A DNA stretch of 12,694 bases from a virus (taxonomy: Duplodnaviria; Heunggongvirae; Uroviricota; Caudoviricetes), in IMG/VR virus record IMGVR_UViG_2529293249_000016, positions 1 to 12,694 of that record, one strand, 5' to 3'. Position 1 is the first letter of the stretch; every line of letters begins with the position of its first letter. Position numbers and translations under genes: made by a program. Below are positions 1,132 to 12,694 of the stretch, piece by piece. The notes below the pieces were generated by a model, which had not been told where the DNA came from, ran no database searches, and was given only the letters and a program-made list of their open reading frames with translations.

Positions 1132-2193
1132 TTAATATTCAAAATTATTTTCTTCAATAGAGAACTCAATCCCTCGGGATAACTTATCAATATTCACATC
1201 AAATGCGATATCTGTTAATTCACCATCCTCGATTTCATACATAACTTCAATTTCAATATCGAAACTAATCTCTTGAACTTCAGTTCGTGTGGTTGTCTCC
1301 ATTGGAATCATTACTTTATCTTCGCTATCCCAATACCCATTATTAAAGTCTGGACCAGAAACAGTAACTTCAAAATCTACAGAAACAGAGAAGGTCGCTA
1401 GACAATAATTATTGTCAATCTTAATTATTGATGGTTCAAAGTCATCAATATTGACGACTTCAAATGAATCCAATTCAGCGTCTTCCCAAGTTGAAACGTT
1501 ATATCCATCGGCATCATTGAGTTGGGCAATTACGTCCGCTCTTATGTCTTCACGTTTGCTTTCGATAAACTGCATCAATTTATTACTTAATTCGTTTGTA
1601 TGCGTATTGTATTCACCTAGAAACTTATCAAGTGAATCAATTTGATGAAGATTGTTTTTACCATCACAATAATTTTTTAAGTCACTATCCTCAGAAATGA
1701 TATACACATCTTCATCATTAACAAATCGCTCTACCGCAGCTAAATTGATTGCATCAGGAAACTCACTTTTTTTCTTATTTTGCCCAAATGGTGGTTCTTT
1801 GCCAAAGTATTTATCTAAAACCTCATTAAGATCTATCACTTCTATTGTAGCTAATTTGGCGTGACATCCTTTCAAAAAATCATCAAAAACTTTTTGTGCT
1901 GCTTCGTGAATTTCATGTTCGTTAAATTGCTGAAAAAAACCATGGAGCGGTCCATTATCAATACTATTCAAAAGCCTAGCTTTTCTTTGTACTGTGTTTA
2001 TAGCCTGCAGAGCATCCTTTATTGATTCCTCTATTTTACCTTTTACTTCTCTCTCTACAACTGTAGTTGTAATTAAGACTAAATCACCTTTCGCACATAA
2101 TTCATGGAAAGCTTTAAATGCTACCCCCTCAAAATGAAGACCAGCCTTTACGTACGTTTGTGTGTCAATAAATACCTTATTTGTTTTAAGCAT
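1132..2193 (-). CDS. AT-rich cargo protein of 353 aa with an N-terminal PIN-like domain (VFIDTQ start) and a very acidic C-terminal half; candidate anti-phage or toxin nuclease
   Basis: ATG at 2193 with AGGA about 7 nt upstream. N-terminus MLKTNKVFIDTQTYVKAGLHFEGVAFKAFHELCAKGDLVLITTTVVEREV resembles PIN-like nuclease folds (DUF4935-type); the C-terminus is D/E-rich. Strongly AT-rich and convergent with the portal gene, lying between portal and cos. Confidence 0.7.
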   Translation of the reverse strand: MLKTNKVFIDTQTYVKAGLHFEGVAFKAFHELCAKGDLVLITTTVVEREVKGKIEESIKDALQAINTVQRKARLLNSIDNGPLHGFFQQFNEHEIHEAAQKVFDDFLKGCHAKLATIEVIDLNEVLDKYFGKEPPFGQNKKKSEFPDAINLAAVERFVNDEDVYIISEDSDLKNYCDGKNNLHQIDSLDKFLGEYNTHTNELSNKLMQFIESKREDIRADVIAQLNDADGYNVSTWEDAELDSFEVVNIDDFEPSIIKIDNNYCLATFSVSVDFEVTVSGPDFNNGYWDSEDKVMIPMETTTRTEVQEISFDIEIEVMYEIEDGELTDIAFDVNIDKLSRGIEFSIEENNFEY

Positions 2194-2680: not shown

Positions 2681-3106
2681 ATGAAAAGCTTTTACGTATT
2701 AATTTTAATTCTGGTTGCAAGCTTTGTTAGCGTCCCAGTTCAGGCGGTAACAGCTAAAAACTATGAGAAAGGAACTAAAGCTCAACAGAAATCAATATCT
2801 TACCTTTCATGTGCATTCTATGGCAGTAGCACACAATTAGATCCTAGCTACACGGAGCAAGTACCTACAGCCGATATCAAGATATTACAGAAAGCAGCTT
2901 ACCACGCTTACAACGATGCGCTCTCATACTTTGGCTATGAGGAACCAGATCACGAACAACGCATAATTGATTATGCTGAATTTGTGGCGTCGCAAGAAGC
3001 TGTGTTATGGGATAAGCCGGGAATGAATGGAAAGCAGGTAACACTAATTGCTCGTTCTCTCTACAATGAGAGTAACTGTAACTTGTTACTGGACTCAATT
3101 AAGTAG
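2681..3106 (+). CDS. Small secreted or periplasmic protein (141 aa) with an N-terminal signal peptide; AT-rich moron of unknown function
   Basis: ATG at 2681 with GAGG 5-8 nt upstream. N-terminus MKSFYVLILILVASFVSVPVQA-VTAK has a hydrophobic core and an AXA-like cleavage site. AT-rich and located between cos and the tum-like operon. Confidence 0.65.
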   Translation: MKSFYVLILILVASFVSVPVQAVTAKNYEKGTKAQQKSISYLSCAFYGSSTQLDPSYTEQVPTADIKILQKAAYHAYNDALSYFGYEEPDHEQRIIDYAEFVASQEAVLWDKPGMNGKQVTLIARSLYNESNCNLLLDSIK

Positions 3107-3265
3107 GAAAAAGATGGTATTTTGCCCGTAGTTTCAACCTTAATCTCCGAACCTGTCGCAGAACGGGCGTTCACTCATCAAATAAACGCCACACCTAACG
3201 CCTCACTGTACTCGTTGTTCAACCTTGCTGACGCCAGAACCAAGTTCAGACGCCAGCAACTTTTC

Positions 3266-3499
3266 TTAATGCAGCCAGCTGTCGTCTTCCCACACCTTCT
3301 GCATAATCTTCATCACTTGTTTTCTTTCTTCGTCCAGTTGCAGTCCGGTCAGTTCCACACCGTTAGAGCTACCTTTGCGGATGCGAATTACCATTTTGGG
3401 ATACAGGGGGCGCAGATTGCGGTAAAGCTCGGATTCAAGGGCGTCCAGGGTAGACTGGCTAATCTTCTGCTCTTTATCGATCATTATTTCAATGCGCAT
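3266..3499 (-). CDS. DinI-family protein (77 aa), SOS-regulated; corresponds to the DinI-like C-terminal part of 186 Tum
   Basis: Internal ATG at 3499 gives MRIEIMIDKEQ...WEDDSWLH, which follows the DinI pattern (MRIEV...WE..D.W). GAGGTG lies about 8 nt upstream and overlaps the stop of the preceding ORF. Confidence 0.7.
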   Translation of the reverse strand: MRIEIMIDKEQKISQSTLDALESELYRNLRPLYPKMVIRIRKGSSNGVELTGLQLDEERKQVMKIMQKVWEDDSWLH

Positions 3500-3509
3500 A
3501 AAGGTCACC

Positions 3510-3698
3510 TCAGCTGATGACATCCATTGAGCGGTTGTATTCGTGGGTTCTGATTTTTGCCATGAGTTCATCAGTCAATTCAGAAACCCACTGCAGAGCC
3601 AGCCCCTTCTCTTCATCACTACACTCACTAGCCGCTACAAGCTTAAGAAAAAAATCAATGCGCTGGAGCTTCAAAGACTCCAAAAAATAGTCCTGCAT
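3510..3698 (-). CDS. Small protein (62 aa), first gene after the LexA box; candidate Tum-like antirepressor N-terminal module
   Basis: ATG at 3698 with a perfect AGGAGG 5-6 nt upstream. It lies about 43 bp downstream of a CTGT-N8-ACAG LexA box and directly upstream of the DinI-like ORF in a different frame. Confidence 0.55.
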   Translation of the reverse strand: MQDYFLESLKLQRIDFFLKLVAASECSDEEKGLALQWVSELTDELMAKIRTHEYNRSMDVIS

Positions 3699-3740
3699 CT
3701 TTCCTCCTATGACACCAAAGTAATACTGTATATATAACCA

Positions 3741-3756
3741 CTGTTTATATTTACAG
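3741..3756 (-). promoter_or_regulatory. LexA (SOS) box CTGT-N8-ACAG in the promoter region of the tum-like/DinI-like operon
   Basis: + strand ctgtttatatttacag (3741-3756) fits the LexA consensus CTGT-(AT-rich)8-ACAG; an adjacent half-site TACTGTATATATAA sits at 3724-3737. A candidate TTTACA -35 lies upstream on the - strand. Confidence 0.6.
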
Positions 3757-3771
3757 TATATAATAATCTTA

Positions 3772-8406: not shown

Positions 8407-8916
8407 TCACAGCAAACCGAATGAAGCACCAAGGCCAGTCATGGTATCAACTGCACTCGCCATCGCAGGATTAGCCTGTAAACGGGCTTGCAATGAAACA
8501 GCAGCCAGCGCCATCAGTCGTGTTACAGAGTTAATGCTGCTGATAGCATCACGACGACCGGCACTAGTTTTTACATCACCAGATACCGCACCTGCTGCAA
8601 CACGCCCGATCTCTGCAGTTGCGCTCATGACGTAATGCGGCAGTTTCTCTTTTGCTACCTCATTAATCGGTACACATGGCAGACAATGAATCTGTGCCAG
8701 AAAACCATCTACCAACGTTGAATCTTCAGTCAGATCGGTAAGCAGCCAGATTTCTGGTGCGGTTAATAAATGAGGTTGAGCTGGATTCAGCTTGTTCCGC
8801 AGAATCTGCACATTCATGCCCGCACGTTCTGCCAGTTGCACCAGATTGTGGCGCAGTGCGAATGCACGACAGGCTTCATCAAAATGTGGATGTTTGGAAA
8901 CTTGGTAATCAAACAT
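8407..8916 (-). CDS. cII: Phage CII-like transcriptional activator, 186 type (169 aa)
   Basis: Internal ATG at 8916 ([19 protein letters not shown]...) with GAGG about 9 nt upstream gives 169 aa, matching the length of 186 CII as I recall it. Sits directly after the apl-like gene in the lytic operon. Confidence 0.75.
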
Positions 8917-8948
8917 GGTCGACACCTCTGATGTATCCCAAAATGGAA

Positions 8949-9170: not shown

Positions 9171-9220
9171 GATGCAACATCTCCTATTGGCTTGTGGTGA
9201 GCCTGTAGTAATCGTGACAA

Positions 9221-9236
9221 GTACCCAATTGGGTAC
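9221..9236. promoter_or_regulatory. Perfect 16-bp palindrome GTACCCAATTGGGTAC in the cI/apl switch region; candidate operator
   Basis: Lies in the roughly 95-bp interval between the apl-like and cI starts. A direct copy of AAGTACCCAA recurs at 9278-9287, inside the cI 5' end. Confidence 0.4.
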
Positions 9237-9265
9237 AAAACTGATACTAGGATCGCAAAAGAGAT

Positions 9266-9862
9266 ATGTCAACATCAAAGTACCCAAGTGAGATCAAAAT
9301 AAATCCCAATAAAGGTGGTAAGGCTGCGATTGAGCGATTAGTCGAAGCCTATGGCTTTACGACACGACAGGCTTTAGCTGATCACTTGGAAGTATCAAAA
9401 AGCACACTAGCGAACAGGTATTTGCGGGATACATTTCCTGCTGACTGGATAATCCAATGTGCTCTTGAAACAGGAACCTCCCTCAAATGGTTAACTACCG
9501 GACAAGGCCTTAAGCAAAGCTCGCTGACAGCAGCTACAGAAGAGCTTGTTAAGTTTCGCCTTGCCGCAGGCAAAATGATTGAAGACGGTTCATATGTCTT
9601 CGATTCATCATTTCTTCCTGCAAACCTTTCATCACCAATTGTTGTTCAGGATGGACTCGTCACATACATTTGTGATCAAAAATTTTCTGAAGTACTTGAT
9701 GGAAACTGGTTAATCAATATCGACGGAACCTATTCCATTCGAAAAATCACAAGGCTTCCTAAAGGAATGATTAAAATTACAACAGCAGAGAATAGCTTTG
9801 AATGTGCATTTTCTGATATTGAAGTGGTTGCTTGTATAAGAAGTACAATAGTCTCGAATTAA
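9266..9862 (+). CDS. cI: Immunity repressor, 186 CI type (198 aa)
   Basis: ATG at 9266. N-terminal HTH region (RLVEAYGFTTRQALADHLEVSKSTLANRY...WLTTGQG) and a size close to the 192 aa of 186 CI. Divergent from the apl/cII operon and upstream of int. Confidence 0.75.
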   Translation: MSTSKYPSEIKINPNKGGKAAIERLVEAYGFTTRQALADHLEVSKSTLANRYLRDTFPADWIIQCALETGTSLKWLTTGQGLKQSSLTAATEELVKFRLAAGKMIEDGSYVFDSSFLPANLSSPIVVQDGLVTYICDQKFSEVLDGNWLINIDGTYSIRKITRLPKGMIKITTAENSFECAFSDIEVVACIRSTIVSN

Positions 9863-9882
9863 TATAGTAAAAGGATTTTAAA

Positions 9883-11559
9883 ATGAATTCATTTGCCATC
9901 GTTATACTCTTATTAGCATTTCTCGCCCCTGTTCTAGCTGTAATATTATTTAAACAAAGTAAAAAACACAAAGCGGCTATAGATAACCTGACAGCTAACA
10001 ACATAGCCCTTTCTAACCAACTGATTGAAAATCAAGAAAAACTAGCACAGACCGCACGAGAATTATCAGAGCTTGAAGGGCGAGCAGCACCATTGTGGCA
10101 ATACGAAGAATTGCACAGCGCAGTAATGGATGCAGAGAATAAGATAAAAAATGCGGACTCAATAGCCAAGCAAAAAATAGATGAAGCCCAAATTAAGGCG
10201 GCTAAAACAGTAAACGAAGCAAATTATCAAGCTCAGATGACAATAAGCAACGCTAATAGCGAAGCTATAGCAATCACCAAAGACGCTCGCGATGCACGCC
10301 TGAAAGCCAAAGAACGTCTTGATAATGCTAATAATAAAGCAAATGAGCTAATCTCAAATGCTAATGACAATGCAGTAAAAATTATTTCTGATGCAGAAGA
10401 AAGAGCAAAGGAGATTGCTGGTTCAGCATATGAAGCTAAAGAGTTTGCAGAAAAATATGAAGCAGTTGCAAAATCAATGAAAAATAAAATTGAAGGTTAT
10501 GGTGATGAATGGATCATCCCTAACCGTAGTGTACTTGATGAGCTGGCAGAAAATTATGAATTTACAGATGCAGGCAAGGAATTACAAAAAGCCAGAGAGT
10601 TAACCAAATCATTAATAAAAACTAATAAAGCTGCTTCGTGTGATTATGTTGAGCAAAACAGGCGTAATACTGCCATAAACTTTGTTTTGGATGCCTTCAA
10701 TGGAAGAGTTGACAGTATTTTATCAAAAGTCAAACACAACAATTTTGGAAAACTTTCCCAAGAAATAAAAGATGCATTTCAACTAGTAAATTACAATGGC
10801 TCTGCCTTTAGGTCCGCAAAAATAAGTGACATCTATCTTCAGGCAAGACTCAACGAGCTAAAATGGGGTGTAGCAGTTAATGAAATTATGCTCGAAGAAA
10901 AAGAAGAGCAAAGAAGGATTAAAGAACAGCTTCGTGAAGAGGAAAGAGCTCGTAGAGAATATGAAAAAGCGATAAAAGAAGCTGAAAAAGAAGAAAAAGC
11001 TATTCAGCAAGCTATAAATAAAGCAACGAAAGAACTTATGCTTGCAAATGAAGAACAACGCTTAGCTTTAGAGCAAAAAATAGCTGAACTACAGTTAAAA
11101 TATGAAGAAGCTGAAGCTAAAAATCAACGAGCTATTTCTATGGCTCAACAAACCAGATCAGGCCACGTCTATATCATTAGTAATATTGGTTCATTTGGCG
11201 AAGATGTATATAAAATTGGAATGACACGCCGCCTTGAACCACTTGATCGTGTTCGTGAACTCGGAGATGCTAGTGTTCCTTTTTCGTTCGATGTTCATGC
11301 GATGATTTATAGTGATGATGCACCATCATTAGAAAACCATCTGCATAAAGTTTTCAACGAAAAGCAGGTCAATAAAATTAACTCACGAAAAGAGTTTTTT
11401 AACGTAAATTTAAAAGAAATCAAATCAGTTATTGAAGACATGAACATCAACGCCCACTGGACAATGTTTGCAGAGGCGAAAGAATATAGAGAGTCTCTAT
11501 CTATTGAGCAGGAGCGCAAAGCAGCCACTTCCGCCAACGATGAACTACATGTTGCTTAG
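9883..11559 (+). CDS. AT-rich cargo protein of 558 aa: N-terminal transmembrane anchor, long K/E/A-rich coiled coil, C-terminal T5orf172 (GIY-YIG-like) domain; candidate anti-phage defence protein
   Basis: ATG at 9883 with AAGGA 7 nt upstream, 20 nt after the cI stop. Hydrophobic N-terminus FAIVILLLAFLAPVLAVILF. C-terminus GHVYIISN...YKIGMTRR...PFSF...RKEFFNV matches the T5orf172/Mug113 pattern. Inserted between cI and int, which are normally adjacent. Confidence 0.75.
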   Translation: MNSFAIVILLLAFLAPVLAVILFKQSKKHKAAIDNLTANNIALSNQLIENQEKLAQTARELSELEGRAAPLWQYEELHSAVMDAENKIKNADSIAKQKIDEAQIKAAKTVNEANYQAQMTISNANSEAIAITKDARDARLKAKERLDNANNKANELISNANDNAVKIISDAEERAKEIAGSAYEAKEFAEKYEAVAKSMKNKIEGYGDEWIIPNRSVLDELAENYEFTDAGKELQKARELTKSLIKTNKAASCDYVEQNRRNTAINFVLDAFNGRVDSILSKVKHNNFGKLSQEIKDAFQLVNYNGSAFRSAKISDIYLQARLNELKWGVAVNEIMLEEKEEQRRIKEQLREEERARREYEKAIKEAEKEEKAIQQAINKATKELMLANEEQRLALEQKIAELQLKYEEAEAKNQRAISMAQQTRSGHVYIISNIGSFGEDVYKIGMTRRLEPLDRVRELGDASVPFSFDVHAMIYSDDAPSLENHLHKVFNEKQVNKINSRKEFFNVNLKEIKSVIEDMNINAHWTMFAEAKEYRESLSIEQERKAATSANDELHVA

Positions 11560-11617
11560 CAATGTATGTTTCATAGTAATCACACATTGATTACTGGTTA
11601 CATATACAGTTAAATTT

Positions 11618-11641
11618 AGCCCTCTGATATGAGGGCTTTTT
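11618..11641 (+). terminator. Rho-independent terminator directly abutting the int start codon
   Basis: AGCCCTC-tgatat-GAGGGCT stem-loop followed by TTTTT, then the int ATG at 11642. Confidence 0.6.
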
Positions 11642-12694
11642 ATGGCAGTACGAAAACTAACCACAGGGAAATGGCTTTGCGAATGTTACCCCGCCGGACG
11701 AAGTGGGCGTCGTGTGCGTAAACAATTCGCTACCAAAGGCGAAGCACTGGCTTTTGAGCGCCACACGATGGAAGAAACCGAAGCAAAGCCCTGGCTGGGT
11801 GAATCAGTGGATCGTCGAACACTGAAAGACGTGGTTGAGCTATGGTTCAAACTACATGGTAAATCTCTGACAGCTGGGCAGCATGTCTATGACAAATTGC
11901 TGTTGATGGTTGACGCTCTGGGCAATCCTCTTGCAACCGATCTCACCTCTAAAATGTTTGCCCACTATCGAGATAAACGCCTGACAGGCGAGATCTACTT
12001 CAGCGAGAAATGGAAGAAAGGAGCAAGCCCGGTCACCATTAACCTGGAGCAAAGCTATCTAAGTAGTGTTTTTAGCGAACTATCCCGTCTGGGCGAATGG
12101 TCGTATCCGAACCCACTGGAGAACATGCGAAAATTCACCATCGCAGAAAAAGAGATGGCATGGCTTACCCATGAGCAGATTGTTGAATTGCTGGCTGATT
12201 GCAAACGTCAGGACCCAATTCTGGCACTGGTAGTTAAGATATGCTTAAGCACAGGCGCACGCTGGCGTGAAGCCGTAAATCTTACCCGCTCACAGGTGAC
12301 CAAATACCGAATTACCTTTGTCAGAACGAAGGGGAAGAAAAACAGAAGCATCCCTATCAGTAAAGAGCTTTACGAAGAGATCATGGCGCTTGATGGGTTC
12401 AATTTCTTCACAGACTGCTATTTTCAATTTTTATCCGTGATGGAAAAAACGTCTATCGTGCTCCCTCGCGGTCAACTCACACACGTTCTGCGCCATACGT
12501 TTGCGGCGCACTTCATGATGTCGGGTGGAAACATTCTGGCCTTACAAAAAATTCTCGGACACCACGATATAAAAATGACTATGCGTTACGCACATCTGGC
12601 ACCGGATCATCTAGAAACGGCGCTCCGTTTCAATCCTCTGGCAACGCTGCCAAGTGGCGACAAAGTGGCGGCAGCGGTTGGCATTACCCCGTAA
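11642..12694 (+). CDS. int: Tyrosine integrase, P2/186 Int family (350 aa)
   Basis: Catalytic-domain signature (ARWREA..., HVLRHTFAAHF, LGHHDIKMTMRYAHL carrying the R, H-x-x-R and Y residues). Position next to cI at the prophage end. TAA stop at the window end. Confidence 0.9.
   Translation: MAVRKLTTGKWLCECYPAGRSGRRVRKQFATKGEALAFERHTMEETEAKPWLGESVDRRTLKDVVELWFKLHGKSLTAGQHVYDKLLLMVDALGNPLATDLTSKMFAHYRDKRLTGEIYFSEKWKKGASPVTINLEQSYLSSVFSELSRLGEWSYPNPLENMRKFTIAEKEMAWLTHEQIVELLADCKRQDPILALVVKICLSTGARWREAVNLTRSQVTKYRITFVRTKGKKNRSIPISKELYEEIMALDGFNFFTDCYFQFLSVMEKTSIVLPRGQLTHVLRHTFAAHFMMSGGNILALQKILGHHDIKMTMRYAHLAPDHLETALRFNPLATLPSGDKVAAAVGITP

Follow-up and report, generated by a model that had tools for sequence, protein, structure and literature searches.

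A conserved hairpin upstream of int in 186-like prophages as part of a candidate integrase control module

In phage lambda, int has a dedicated CII-activated promoter, pI, and its fate depends on the origin of the transcript, the discrimination being made by a downstream site (sib, RNase III, N antitermination). For IS10/Tn10, Davis, Simons and Kleckner are said to have described in 1985 a fold-back inhibition in which transcription from the promoter of the element begins within the stem, so that its own mRNA escapes. The left end of IS200 carries a terminator and a Shine-Dalgarno hairpin (PMC4513863), and lambda CII is known to activate int (PMC7708051). In phage 186 the lysogenic operon drives int expression (PMC8538670), and the CII half-sites are located at -38 and -58 of pE (PMC6593788). 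The 186 pE promoter serves cI and int alike, there is no second CII site directly before int, and LexA acts on tum only, not on int.

The window analysed here (the whole stretch of DNA under study, 12,694 nucleotides) lacks the 186-type operonic arrangement, in which int begins right at the end of cI or overlaps it. In true 186-type relatives the cI-int gap amounts to -1 to 3 nt, whereas in the window it spans 1779 nt and holds a cargo gene, a promoter-like module and a hairpin (Table 1). The cI gene, annotated as repressor cI in ON470620, is followed after 20 nt by the start of the cargo gene, with which it is presumably co-transcribed; RefSeq labels the cargo protein as DUF4041 or SNIPE-associated. 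The int start codon is indeed the ATG at 11642, as shown by the alignment of MAVRKL with the N-termini of 186-type integrases. In ON470620 the host gene rcdA comes next after int. The product of cII is presumed to act as activator at both the pE-type site and the int-upstream site, and the two overlapping LexA boxes on the minus strand represent the analogue of 186 p95-tum, which shows that this phage is wired to the SOS response.

Table 1. Annotated and predicted features of the window (positions are those of the window)
Feature	Position	Strand	Remarks
Two overlapping LexA boxes	3724..3758	-	5' of a 62-aa ORF and a DinI-like ORF
cII	8407..8916	-	Pfam Phage_CP76 4e-42; PHROG CII-like activator 9e-57
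pE-type CII site ATGTTTG-N13-CAAACAT	8890..8916		start of cII; reference for the int-upstream repeat
cI repressor gene	9266..9862	+	Pfam Phage_CI_repr 8e-32, Phage_CI_C 3.5e-27; first gene of the lysogenic (pL/pE) operon
Cargo, PD-Lambda-1-type defence protein	9883..11559	+	Pfam DUF4041 plus T5orf172/MUG113; PADLOC PD-Lambda-1 2.8e-120
Promoter-distal CII-type half-site ATGTATG	11562..11568		predicted position -58
Promoter-proximal half-site CACACAT	11581..11587		predicted position -38; shares one base with the -35
-35 TTGATT	11587..11592	+	TTGACA or TTGACC in relatives
LexA (SOS) box TACTGGTTACATATACAGTT	11592..11611		CTG-N10-CAG match; fills the -35/-10 spacer
-10 TTAAAT (17-nt spacer) or TAAATT (18-nt spacer)	11610..11616	+	position relative to half-site as CAAAAT at pE
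RNA stem-loop AGCCCTC-tgatat-GAGGGCT	11618-11637	+	5' arm 11618-11624, loop 11625-11630, 3' arm 11631-11637
int Shine-Dalgarno GAGGG	11631-11635	+	within 3' arm, 6 nt 5' of ATG
T-run (U-tract)	11637-11641	+	also the spacer between Shine-Dalgarno and ATG
int, tyrosine integrase, 350 aa	11642..12694	+	Pfam Int_N, Phage_integrase

The stem-loop and T-run abutting the int ATG, which an earlier note on this DNA had pointed out, are indeed present. The stem comprises 7 bp with G-C in five of the seven pairs, the loop TGATAT has 6 nt, and the run consists of five T, the first of which is the closing base of the stem (tail TTTT(A)T); the int ATG follows directly 3' of it. The hairpin appears in a consensus terminator scan of the window and folds with a free energy of -13.3 kcal/mol, whereas shuffled sequences average -4.2 (z -4.1; one of 200 shuffles folds equally well). 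Since the enrichment of terminator-like patterns over the entire window is only moderate (22 versus 12.4 +/- 3.9 expected), the pattern match alone is weak evidence. It is conservation that lifts the hairpin above chance. A hairpin is predicted at the same place in 68 of 69 distinct related int-upstream sequences, in 60 of them at -9 kcal/mol or below, and the folding z-scores go down to -6.4 across diverse hairpin versions.

In a MAFFT alignment of 28 hairpin regions the stem types fell out of structural register; support was therefore drawn from per-sequence folds, z-scores and an arm-swap test. The two arms co-vary: native arm pairs reached a mean of -12.0 kcal/mol versus -7.2 for chimeras, and one version (L139) shows a compensatory change from C-G to U-A. 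These data bear on the idea that the inverted repeat is not an RNA structure at all but a DNA operator for a phage protein, for example in Int autoregulation or for Apl. The palindrome does adjoin the promoter, and repression of int promoters by an RDF or by Int has been described for P4 and KplE1 (PMC7498355). However, the arms differ widely (AGCCCTC/GAGGGCT versus ATGCTCTCT/GGAGGGCAT) even though the Int proteins are 99-100% identical, and several versions pair solely via U.G pairs, which occur on the plus strand only and turn into A.C mismatches on the opposite strand. Moreover, the loop length varies from 3 to 13 nt, whereas the 3' arm is always the Shine-Dalgarno sequence, which is embedded in the stem in at least 60 module versions. 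We thus regard an operator function of the repeat as extremely unlikely.

While the hairpin is general, the T-run is confined to one subclade. The nearest relatives have a run of 6-7 T, but several versions (L004, L025, L028, L032-42 and L079) have retained the hairpin without it, and the run is missing in the Serratia, Yersinia, Rahnella and ev040 versions. The U-tract of the window is short: five U, then A, then U. That the T-run is absent in much of the clade also speaks against the notion that the 3' UTR of the cargo mRNA gives rise to a small RNA, made up of the 82 nt from the cargo stop to the T-run and ending in an Hfq-type terminator. Such a molecule would have the terminator with a U-tail that is seen here, and an Rfam search gave a weak RyhB match at 11576-11644 (28.5 bits, E 0.0024). 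Yet this value is far under the RyhB gathering score of 55, the Rfam matches were all sub-threshold, and we take the RyhB match as a terminator-shape artefact. As the conserved positions are accounted for by promoter, LexA and CII elements and not by a seed region, a small RNA is exceedingly improbable.

With a canonical Rho-independent terminator the structure shares the G+C-rich 7-bp stem, the 6-nt loop, the adjoining U-run and the co-oriented upstream gene. Unlike the canonical type, it has a short U-tract that also separates Shine-Dalgarno and ATG, the Shine-Dalgarno of the next gene lies inside the stem, the 5' arm overlaps the promoter discriminator and start region, and much of the clade keeps the hairpin without any U-tract. 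The hairpin is predicted to serve both as terminator stem and as anti-Shine-Dalgarno structure.

The earlier note had placed the hairpin at the end of the cargo gene. Taken to its conclusion, this reading would make it the cargo's own intrinsic terminator that arrived with the cargo; int would be cut off from pL/pE as its only promoters and under-expressed, and integration or excision would be impaired. The hairpin and T-run do follow the cargo in the same orientation, and the premise that 186-type int comes from the lysogenic operon is borne out by the literature and by the close cI-int junctions of the 186-type relatives. Nevertheless, the cargo ORF stops at 11559 and the hairpin begins 58 nt further on. 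The space of 80 bp that separates this stop from int corresponds to a module (11562-11641) of which 69 distinct versions are found upstream of related integrases; these integrases are 55-100% identical, and the order of the elements is the same in all versions. The hairpin position and the promoter-like elements recur with at least 20 different cargo genes, many unrelated ORFs among them, and the homology with phages of other cargo spans the entire 80-bp region. One version (L004) occurs without any cargo, and in a Rahnella version (L042) the module and int are located not behind cI, but behind gpD-ogr and a separate terminator. Since no cI-operon transcript can reach int in the latter case, the module must supply a promoter. 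Furthermore, 1121 of 5426 complete E. coli genomes (~20%) contain the module, and so do isolated, plaque-forming or inducible phages, which is hard to square with a crippling defect. An origin of the hairpin from the cargo is therefore very unlikely.

From this comparison it appears that the hairpin belongs to a conserved int control module rather than to the cargo gene. Module-bearing phages nearly always have variable cargo between cI and int, with 385-3286 nt at the module loci, whereas cI and int overlap or abut in module-less 186-type loci. Only a part of the insulation that had been proposed for this locus can be upheld: a terminator-like hairpin is located between cI/cargo and int, and plausibly insulates int from pL/pE, but it is not the cargo's own terminator. 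Nor does int seem to be starved of expression. The earlier note had raised this concern but had itself allowed for an unrecognised int promoter, and the 80 bp upstream hold a conserved predicted promoter that comprises a LexA box and a CII site of the pE type. Comparative sequence evidence thus points to an independent int promoter upstream of 11642, which the earlier note had named as counter-evidence to its own reading.

The candidate int promoter matches the geometry of pE. The pE-type site at the start of cII, which is also found in 186-type loci, is the sole perfect match in the window (0.01 expected). In the repeat upstream of int the half-sites are 19 bp apart from centre to centre, compared with 19 (37 versions) or 20 bp (21 versions) in the relatives, and the proximal half-site has one mismatch to CAWACAT. 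Across the module loci, the distal half-site lies at -78 to -86 from the int ATG. The distance from the proximal half-site to the -10 is 22 nt both at pE (CAAAAT, 8939-8944) and at the int promoter (TTAAAT, 11610-11615). When 1.0 Mb of loci were searched for the strict repeat ATGTWTG-N12-13-CAWACAW, its occurrences were confined to pE, to positions -70 to -95 relative to int and, in Rahnella, to the stretch before ogr. Shared with 186 pE are a 7-bp inverted repeat of identical consensus (ATGTTTG...CAAACAT) whose halves lie some two helical turns apart, the 22-nt distance, and a cII gene in the same genome. Unlike pE, this copy stands directly before int and not before cI, spacings of 19 and 20 bp are equally frequent, the spacer carries a LexA box, and the -35 is near-consensus (TTGACA) in most relatives. 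Taken together, the repeat, its spacing and the cII gene have the features of a pE-type CII-dependent promoter, from which we infer that CII activates int. The core promoter of the window is weak, with 8 of 12 consensus matches, and was absent from the list returned by a simple promoter scan of the window; the scan of a relative (L013) lists TTGACC-18-TAAATT.

The spacer of this promoter is filled by the LexA box TACTGGTTACATATACAGTT. With a position weight matrix built from E. coli sites (training sites 12.1-25.3 bits), the box scores 22.6 bits and shares the top rank in the window with the tum-like promoter box; none of the shuffles reached the top three LexA scores of the window. A LexA box is present in all 69 module versions (15.7-26.2 bits), while non-module loci score 6.3 at most. 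Among 41 distinct boxes the CTG and CAG never change, while the interior varies. We have also considered the box as a CI operator and dismissed this option: the cI proteins of module phages diverge (39-86% identical), whereas the LexA box is retained. By its palindromic sequence with an A/T-rich centre, its conservation and its overlap with the promoter, TACTGGTTACATATACAGTT qualifies as a putative LexA operator, to which LexA would be predicted to bind. Such an arrangement, a LexA box over the promoter of an SOS-switch or recombination gene, is also seen in 186 p95-tum and in integron intI, although intI belongs to a recombinase family context that differs from phage int. With LexA seated in the spacer, however, expression driven by CII would presumably be impeded as well when the infected cell is undamaged, which complicates the proposed logic for integration. 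In our literature search we found neither a LexA box nor an own promoter described for P2/186-type int, and Nilsson 2011 mentions neither of them at int; the search likewise returned no measured transcription starts, LexA/CII binding or termination for this phage group.

From the pE geometry, the int transcript is predicted to start at about 11622, within the 5' arm of the hairpin, with an accuracy of about +/-2 nt. In 66 of 68 versions the predicted +1 precedes the last base of the 5' arm by no more than 3 nt (0-3 nt). An RNA that begins at 11622 has no significant structure (z +0.9). The probability that the Shine-Dalgarno is unpaired is 0.00 if the RNA starts at or before 11620, and 0.4-0.74 if it starts at or after 11623; only starts at or after 11622 free it. 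The outcome hinges on the start site to within 2 nt, so that the exact start is decisive. None of the preferred start positions is a purine.

This sensitivity leads to another scenario, in which the int promoter is real but its transcript begins no later than the 5' arm (11617-11620). In that case int's own mRNA would include the hairpin, either as an attenuator that also curbs translation or as a stem that stabilises the 5' end. Int would then always be low, and transcripts would not be told apart by their origin. The limited accuracy of the start prediction leaves room for this, as a start at 11620 retains a stem of -8.2 kcal/mol with a fully paired Shine-Dalgarno. In the Rahnella versions the predicted start still leaves 5-6 bp, and the hairpin is kept there despite the separate upstream terminator; furthermore, the IS200 transposase mRNA has its own Shine-Dalgarno-sequestering stem (PMC4513863). 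On the other hand, the -10 ends at 11615/11616, and a start at 11619 or earlier would be only 3-4 nt away, which is unusually close. In addition, the 5' arm ends no more than 3 nt from the pE-geometry start in all but two of the 68 versions, and, where a T-run is present, it would be wasteful for a promoter to terminate its own transcript after 20 nt. Altogether, we consider a hairpin within the int mRNA rather unlikely.

Instead, the hairpin and T-run probably form the 3' end of an autonomous control module that uncouples int from the cI operon in this 186-like prophage. Transcripts from pL in the lysogen, or from pE after infection, would cross cI and the cargo gene and carry both hairpin arms. 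They would be terminated at the U-tract, and in any read-through RNA the GAGGG Shine-Dalgarno would be locked in the stem. By contrast, int would be transcribed from the promoter of its own module, composed of the CII site at about -58/-38, the -35, the LexA operator in the spacer and the -10. Because a start inside the 5' arm leaves the stem out, the resulting mRNA would be free of the anti-Shine-Dalgarno/terminator stem, and translatable. In the lysogen int would be silent, with LexA bound, CII absent and read-through blocked. After infection Int would be made through CII, and upon SOS induction via LexA cleavage plus CII from derepressed pR; this combination of CII and LexA control is a prediction.

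The proposed module resembles lambda pI with tI/sib in having its own CII-type int promoter and, as predicted here, origin-dependent int expression. However, lambda CII is unrelated to 186 CII, pI is without LexA control, and the discriminating structure is here upstream and overlaps the promoter. With IS10 and IS200 it would share the protection of a recombinase gene against incoming transcription, through a terminator and/or a stem in which the ribosome-binding site is hidden. The differences are that a single hairpin would be both terminator and anti-Shine-Dalgarno structure, and that the gene is a phage integrase whose promoter has predicted CII and LexA regulation. Moreover, escape of the own mRNA is known for IS10, but is a prediction for the module.

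In evolutionary terms, we tentatively propose, with slightly less than even confidence, that a large clade of 186-like prophages swapped operonic int expression for an 80-bp switch, a single segment of which unites the roles of promoter discriminator, terminator stem and anti-Shine-Dalgarno. In this view Int comes solely from a CII-activated, LexA-repressed promoter and not from read-through of lysogenic or late transcripts. The insulation would have made the cI-int junction a free slot for defence genes like PD-Lambda-1, which travel on the repressor transcript and leave integration and excision undisturbed. If this is true, int control in a very common group of P2/186-like prophages differs from the current view, excision is tied to SOS at the int promoter on top of the Tum antirepressor, and the lysogen does without integrase production. 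It would also provide a mechanism by which the cI-int junction tolerates diverse defence genes that are expressed with the repressor. In practical terms, the hairpin should then not be annotated as a defect, and any deletion or relocation of the cargo must spare 11562-11641.

Two minor points concern the CII-type inverted repeat. We rejected it as a candidate RNA terminator of the cargo, as it lacks a subsequent U-tract and, in most cases, self-complementarity between the half-sites. In the Rahnella phages the same repeat is found before ogr, a location that fits poorly with a purely pro-lysogenic role of CII.

The window belongs to a prophage of the 186/P2-like type (Peduoviridae), and Escherichia phage vB_EcoM-813R9 is 100% identical to it across 9200-12694. 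Since the cargo gene, named 'SNIPE associated domain' in some RefSeq genomes, starts 20 nt 3' of the cI stop, it is probably expressed together with the repressor in lysogens.

Window features relevant to the control of int
Feature	Position	Strand	Remarks
gpA, Dam-type methylase gene, gpB-like gene, cII, Cox/Apl-like gene		-	
pE-type site	8890-8916		perfect ATGTWTG-N13-CAWACAT at the cII start codon; only one in the window, 0.01 expected
cI	9266-9862	+	repressor gene
Cargo gene	9883-11559	+	558 aa; PD-Lambda-1-type defence protein; DUF4041 + T5orf172; PADLOC 2.8e-120
CII-type inverted repeat	11562-11568, 11581-11587		ATGTATG, CACACAT; upstream of int
LexA box	11592-11611		TACTGGTTACATATACAGTT; fills the -35/-10 spacer of the predicted int promoter
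int	11642-12694	+	integrase gene

A hairpin with the arms AGCCCTC (5', 11618-11624) and GAGGGCT (3', 11631-11637) and the loop TGATAT is followed by TTTT and then the int ATG at 11642. The earlier note had reported a stem-loop plus T-run at this place, and the sequence, a terminator scan and the fold (-13.3 kcal/mol, z -4.1) agree. Terminator-like patterns in the whole window exceed shuffles by only about 2.5 sd, and the hairpin pattern alone is therefore unconvincing. The further claim, that the cargo gene ends in this structure and owns the terminator, does not hold: the stem lies 58 nt downstream of the cargo stop, and similar hairpins accompany other genes or no cargo at all. In Klebsiella phage 4LV2017 two unrelated genes separate cI from int, and int is preceded by ATGCTCTCC-act-GGAGGGCAT-TTTTTT-ATG and, before that, a similar 80-bp stretch. 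In phage ESSI2_ev040, which is without any cargo, the same kind of 78-bp stretch directly follows the repressor stop; its hairpin is ATACCCCT...AGGGGTAT, and the T-run is absent. Absent from the earlier note is that the 3' arm includes GAGGG, which is the Shine-Dalgarno sequence of int and lies 6 nt from its ATG.

A comparison of the 100 nt 5' of int in 157 loci encoding related integrases, giving 107 distinct sequences, revealed one ordered module (CII-type repeat, -35, LexA box, -10, hairpin) common to 69 of them. The 38 sequences without it include the true 186-type phages (Eganvirus, SopEPhi, many enterobacterial prophages), in which cI and int overlap or abut (gap -1 to 3 nt). This one-operon adjacency to cI is the defining feature of 186-type int expression and is lacking at the window's int. 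Module loci hold 385-3286 nt between the cI stop and int, occupied by highly varied ORFs that range from 63 aa to 662 aa and are often two genes; only locus L004 has none. The stop codons of these ORFs lie at -72 to -92 relative to the int ATG, exactly where the distal half-site is. In the few module-less loci with an inserted ORF (L005, L040, L044) it lies 6-28 nt from int, so int stays operonic there. Of 5426 complete E. coli genomes, 1121 contain the stretch of the module that begins at the proximal half-site and runs into int. The commonest cargo in the fetched loci is a 63-aa ORF (L008 3121-3312, about 30 IMG/VR loci) with a signal-peptide-like N-terminus and several cysteines.

The hairpin is present in 68 of the 69 module versions, 60 of them at -9 kcal/mol or better, and ends 0-8 nt before the int ATG; z-scores of diverse versions range from -1.1 to -6.4, mostly below -3. 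The arm sequences differ widely yet remain complementary (AGCCCTC/GAGGGCT, ATGCTCTCC/GGAGGGCAT, ATACCCCT/AGGGGTAT, CACATTCTC/GAGAATGTG, CTCTCCTAA/TTAGGAGAG, ACCCCCTT/AAGGGGGT), with a double compensatory change in L139 (AGTCCTCA/TGAGGACT). Native pairs fold at a mean of -12.0 kcal/mol, versus -7.2 for arms exchanged between versions. Several versions contain U.G pairs, which are possible on the + strand only, and the Shine-Dalgarno sequence is always carried by the 3' arm. Judged from these sequences, the hairpin functions as RNA, in a role that is conserved. The T-run occurs only in Escherichia/Klebsiella/Enterobacter-type versions, whereas those of Serratia, Yersinia, Rahnella, Brenneria and ev040 keep the stem and lack the T-run. 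Therefore, the predicted masking of the Shine-Dalgarno sequence is the general feature; predicted termination is an addition in the window's subclade.

The upstream elements of the module resemble pE, the CII-activated promoter of 186, where CII binds an inverted repeat with half-sites at -38 and -58, a spacing of two helical turns (PMC6593788). The window's pE-type site is where 186 pE lies, and every 186-type locus has the same repeat at the same place. Across 1.0 Mb of loci, matches to the strict motif are confined to pE, to positions -70 to -95 from int and, in Rahnella phages, to the region before ogr. At pE (-10 CAAAAT) and likewise at the int site (TTAAAT), 22 nt separate the proximal half-site from the -10. 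The predicted int promoter has the -10 element TTAAAT/TAAATT and the -35 element TTGATT, most relatives having TTGACA or TTGACC; in the relative L013 a consensus scan finds TTGACC-18-TAAATT with the hairpin directly after. In Rahnella-type prophages int lies not behind cI but behind gpU, gpD, a glyoxalase gene, ogr and a strong terminator, and the full module is still there, which is independent support for a promoter within it. In these prophages a strict repeat (ATGTATG-N13-CATACAA, L042 3076-3102; also L032, L034, L035, L037, L039) lies about 50 nt 5' of the gene for the ogr-like late activator, with a -10-like TTATAT at comparable spacing; a CII that promotes lysogeny would not be expected to act at this place.

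Scored with a matrix of 27 E. coli SOS boxes, the int-upstream LexA box reaches 22.6 bits and ties for the window's best site. The tied-best and third-best sites are two overlapping boxes in the arrangement known from colicin promoters (3724-3758, - strand; 19.2 and 22.6 bits), 5' of a 62-aa ORF (3698..3510, phrog_698, function unknown) and a DinI-like ORF (3571..3266). Together they are the counterpart of the LexA-controlled p95-tum of 186 (PMC7708051) and look like a split version of it. The LexA box scores 15.7-26.2 bits in all 69 modules and at most 6.3 bits in non-module int upstreams; CTG and CAG are invariant across 41 distinct boxes, and the centre is variable. The predicted box is retained in phages with cI proteins of only 39-86% identity to that of the window, which favours a host factor over CI as the protein acting on it. 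A 12-bit LexA-like site (1990-2009) lies within a gene at 1132-2193 (-) for a PIN_12-domain protein, in the gpA-portal hotspot next to unannotated ORFs (2681-3106, 3122-3517); this protein has no match in PADLOC.

The pE geometry, with the proximal half-site centred at -38, puts the predicted int transcript start at 11622, and a distance of 7 nt from the -10 leads to 11622-11623. In 66 of 68 versions the 5' arm, whose length ranges over 5-13 nt, has its final base 0-3 nt downstream of the predicted start. An RNA that begins at 11622 shows no significant structure (z +0.9). The Shine-Dalgarno sequence is completely paired when the RNA begins at 11620 or earlier, and is 40-74% unpaired when it begins at 11623 or later. 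With the predicted start inside the 5' arm, this pairing suggests that cI/cargo-derived transcripts can form the stem and that int's own transcript probably cannot. The start site is the least secure step of the argument, as a 2-nt error leaves a -8 kcal/mol stem, and the preferred start positions hold no purine.

From sequence comparison, then, the conserved hairpin would insulate int in two ways and forms part of a predicted promoter that belongs to int itself and probably responds to SOS and CII. The earlier interpretation is partly supported: that the hairpin shields int from upstream transcripts is plausible; the assignment of the hairpin to the cargo gene fails because it belongs to the module with int's predicted promoter. 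We infer binding, start site and efficiencies in the following mechanism. In the lysogen, pL (the lysogenic promoter of the cI operon in 186) would transcribe cI and the cargo gene, this RNA would end at the hairpin and U-tract, and leaked RNA would be untranslatable; with LexA on the int promoter and CII absent, no Int would be made. Upon DNA damage, the tum-like gene would be freed by LexA cleavage, and so would the int promoter; CI inactivation would then turn on pR, yielding Apl and CII, and excision would be carried out by Int and Apl. In newly infected cells, the int promoter would be switched on by CII in the way pE is; alternatively, Int for integration may come from leaky read-through from strongly activated pE.

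The arrangement is a variant of known regulatory kinds and easy to test. Like lambda pI, it would combine CII-activated int with expression dependent on transcript origin, and it would resemble LexA-controlled recombinase promoters in mode of control. IS10 fold-back inhibition shields a recombinase from outside transcription. The IS200 left end does the same (PMC4513863), and the hairpin would be similar to both in this respect. In the literature covered, in which older P2/186 papers are poorly represented, we found neither a LexA box nor a CII site described at an int of P2/186 type.

Only the lineage with this cargo has a perfect 7-bp inverted repeat, GTAATCA-cacat-TGATTAC (11577-11595), which overlaps the proximal CII half-site, the -35 and the LexA box start, and gives a second hairpin in read-through RNA. 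A weak Rfam RyhB match (11576-11644; 28.5 bits, gathering score 55, E 0.0024) is probably driven by terminator shape. The T-run counts 5 T in the window and 6 identical loci and 6-7 T in the nearest same-cargo relatives (L003, L010, L116, L128), a difference that alters both the U-tract and the Shine-Dalgarno-to-ATG spacing. L003 (OM835953, Klebsiella phage KP12) is recorded as Vequintavirinae, yet the region clearly comes from a P2/186-like prophage, with 96% identity to the window.
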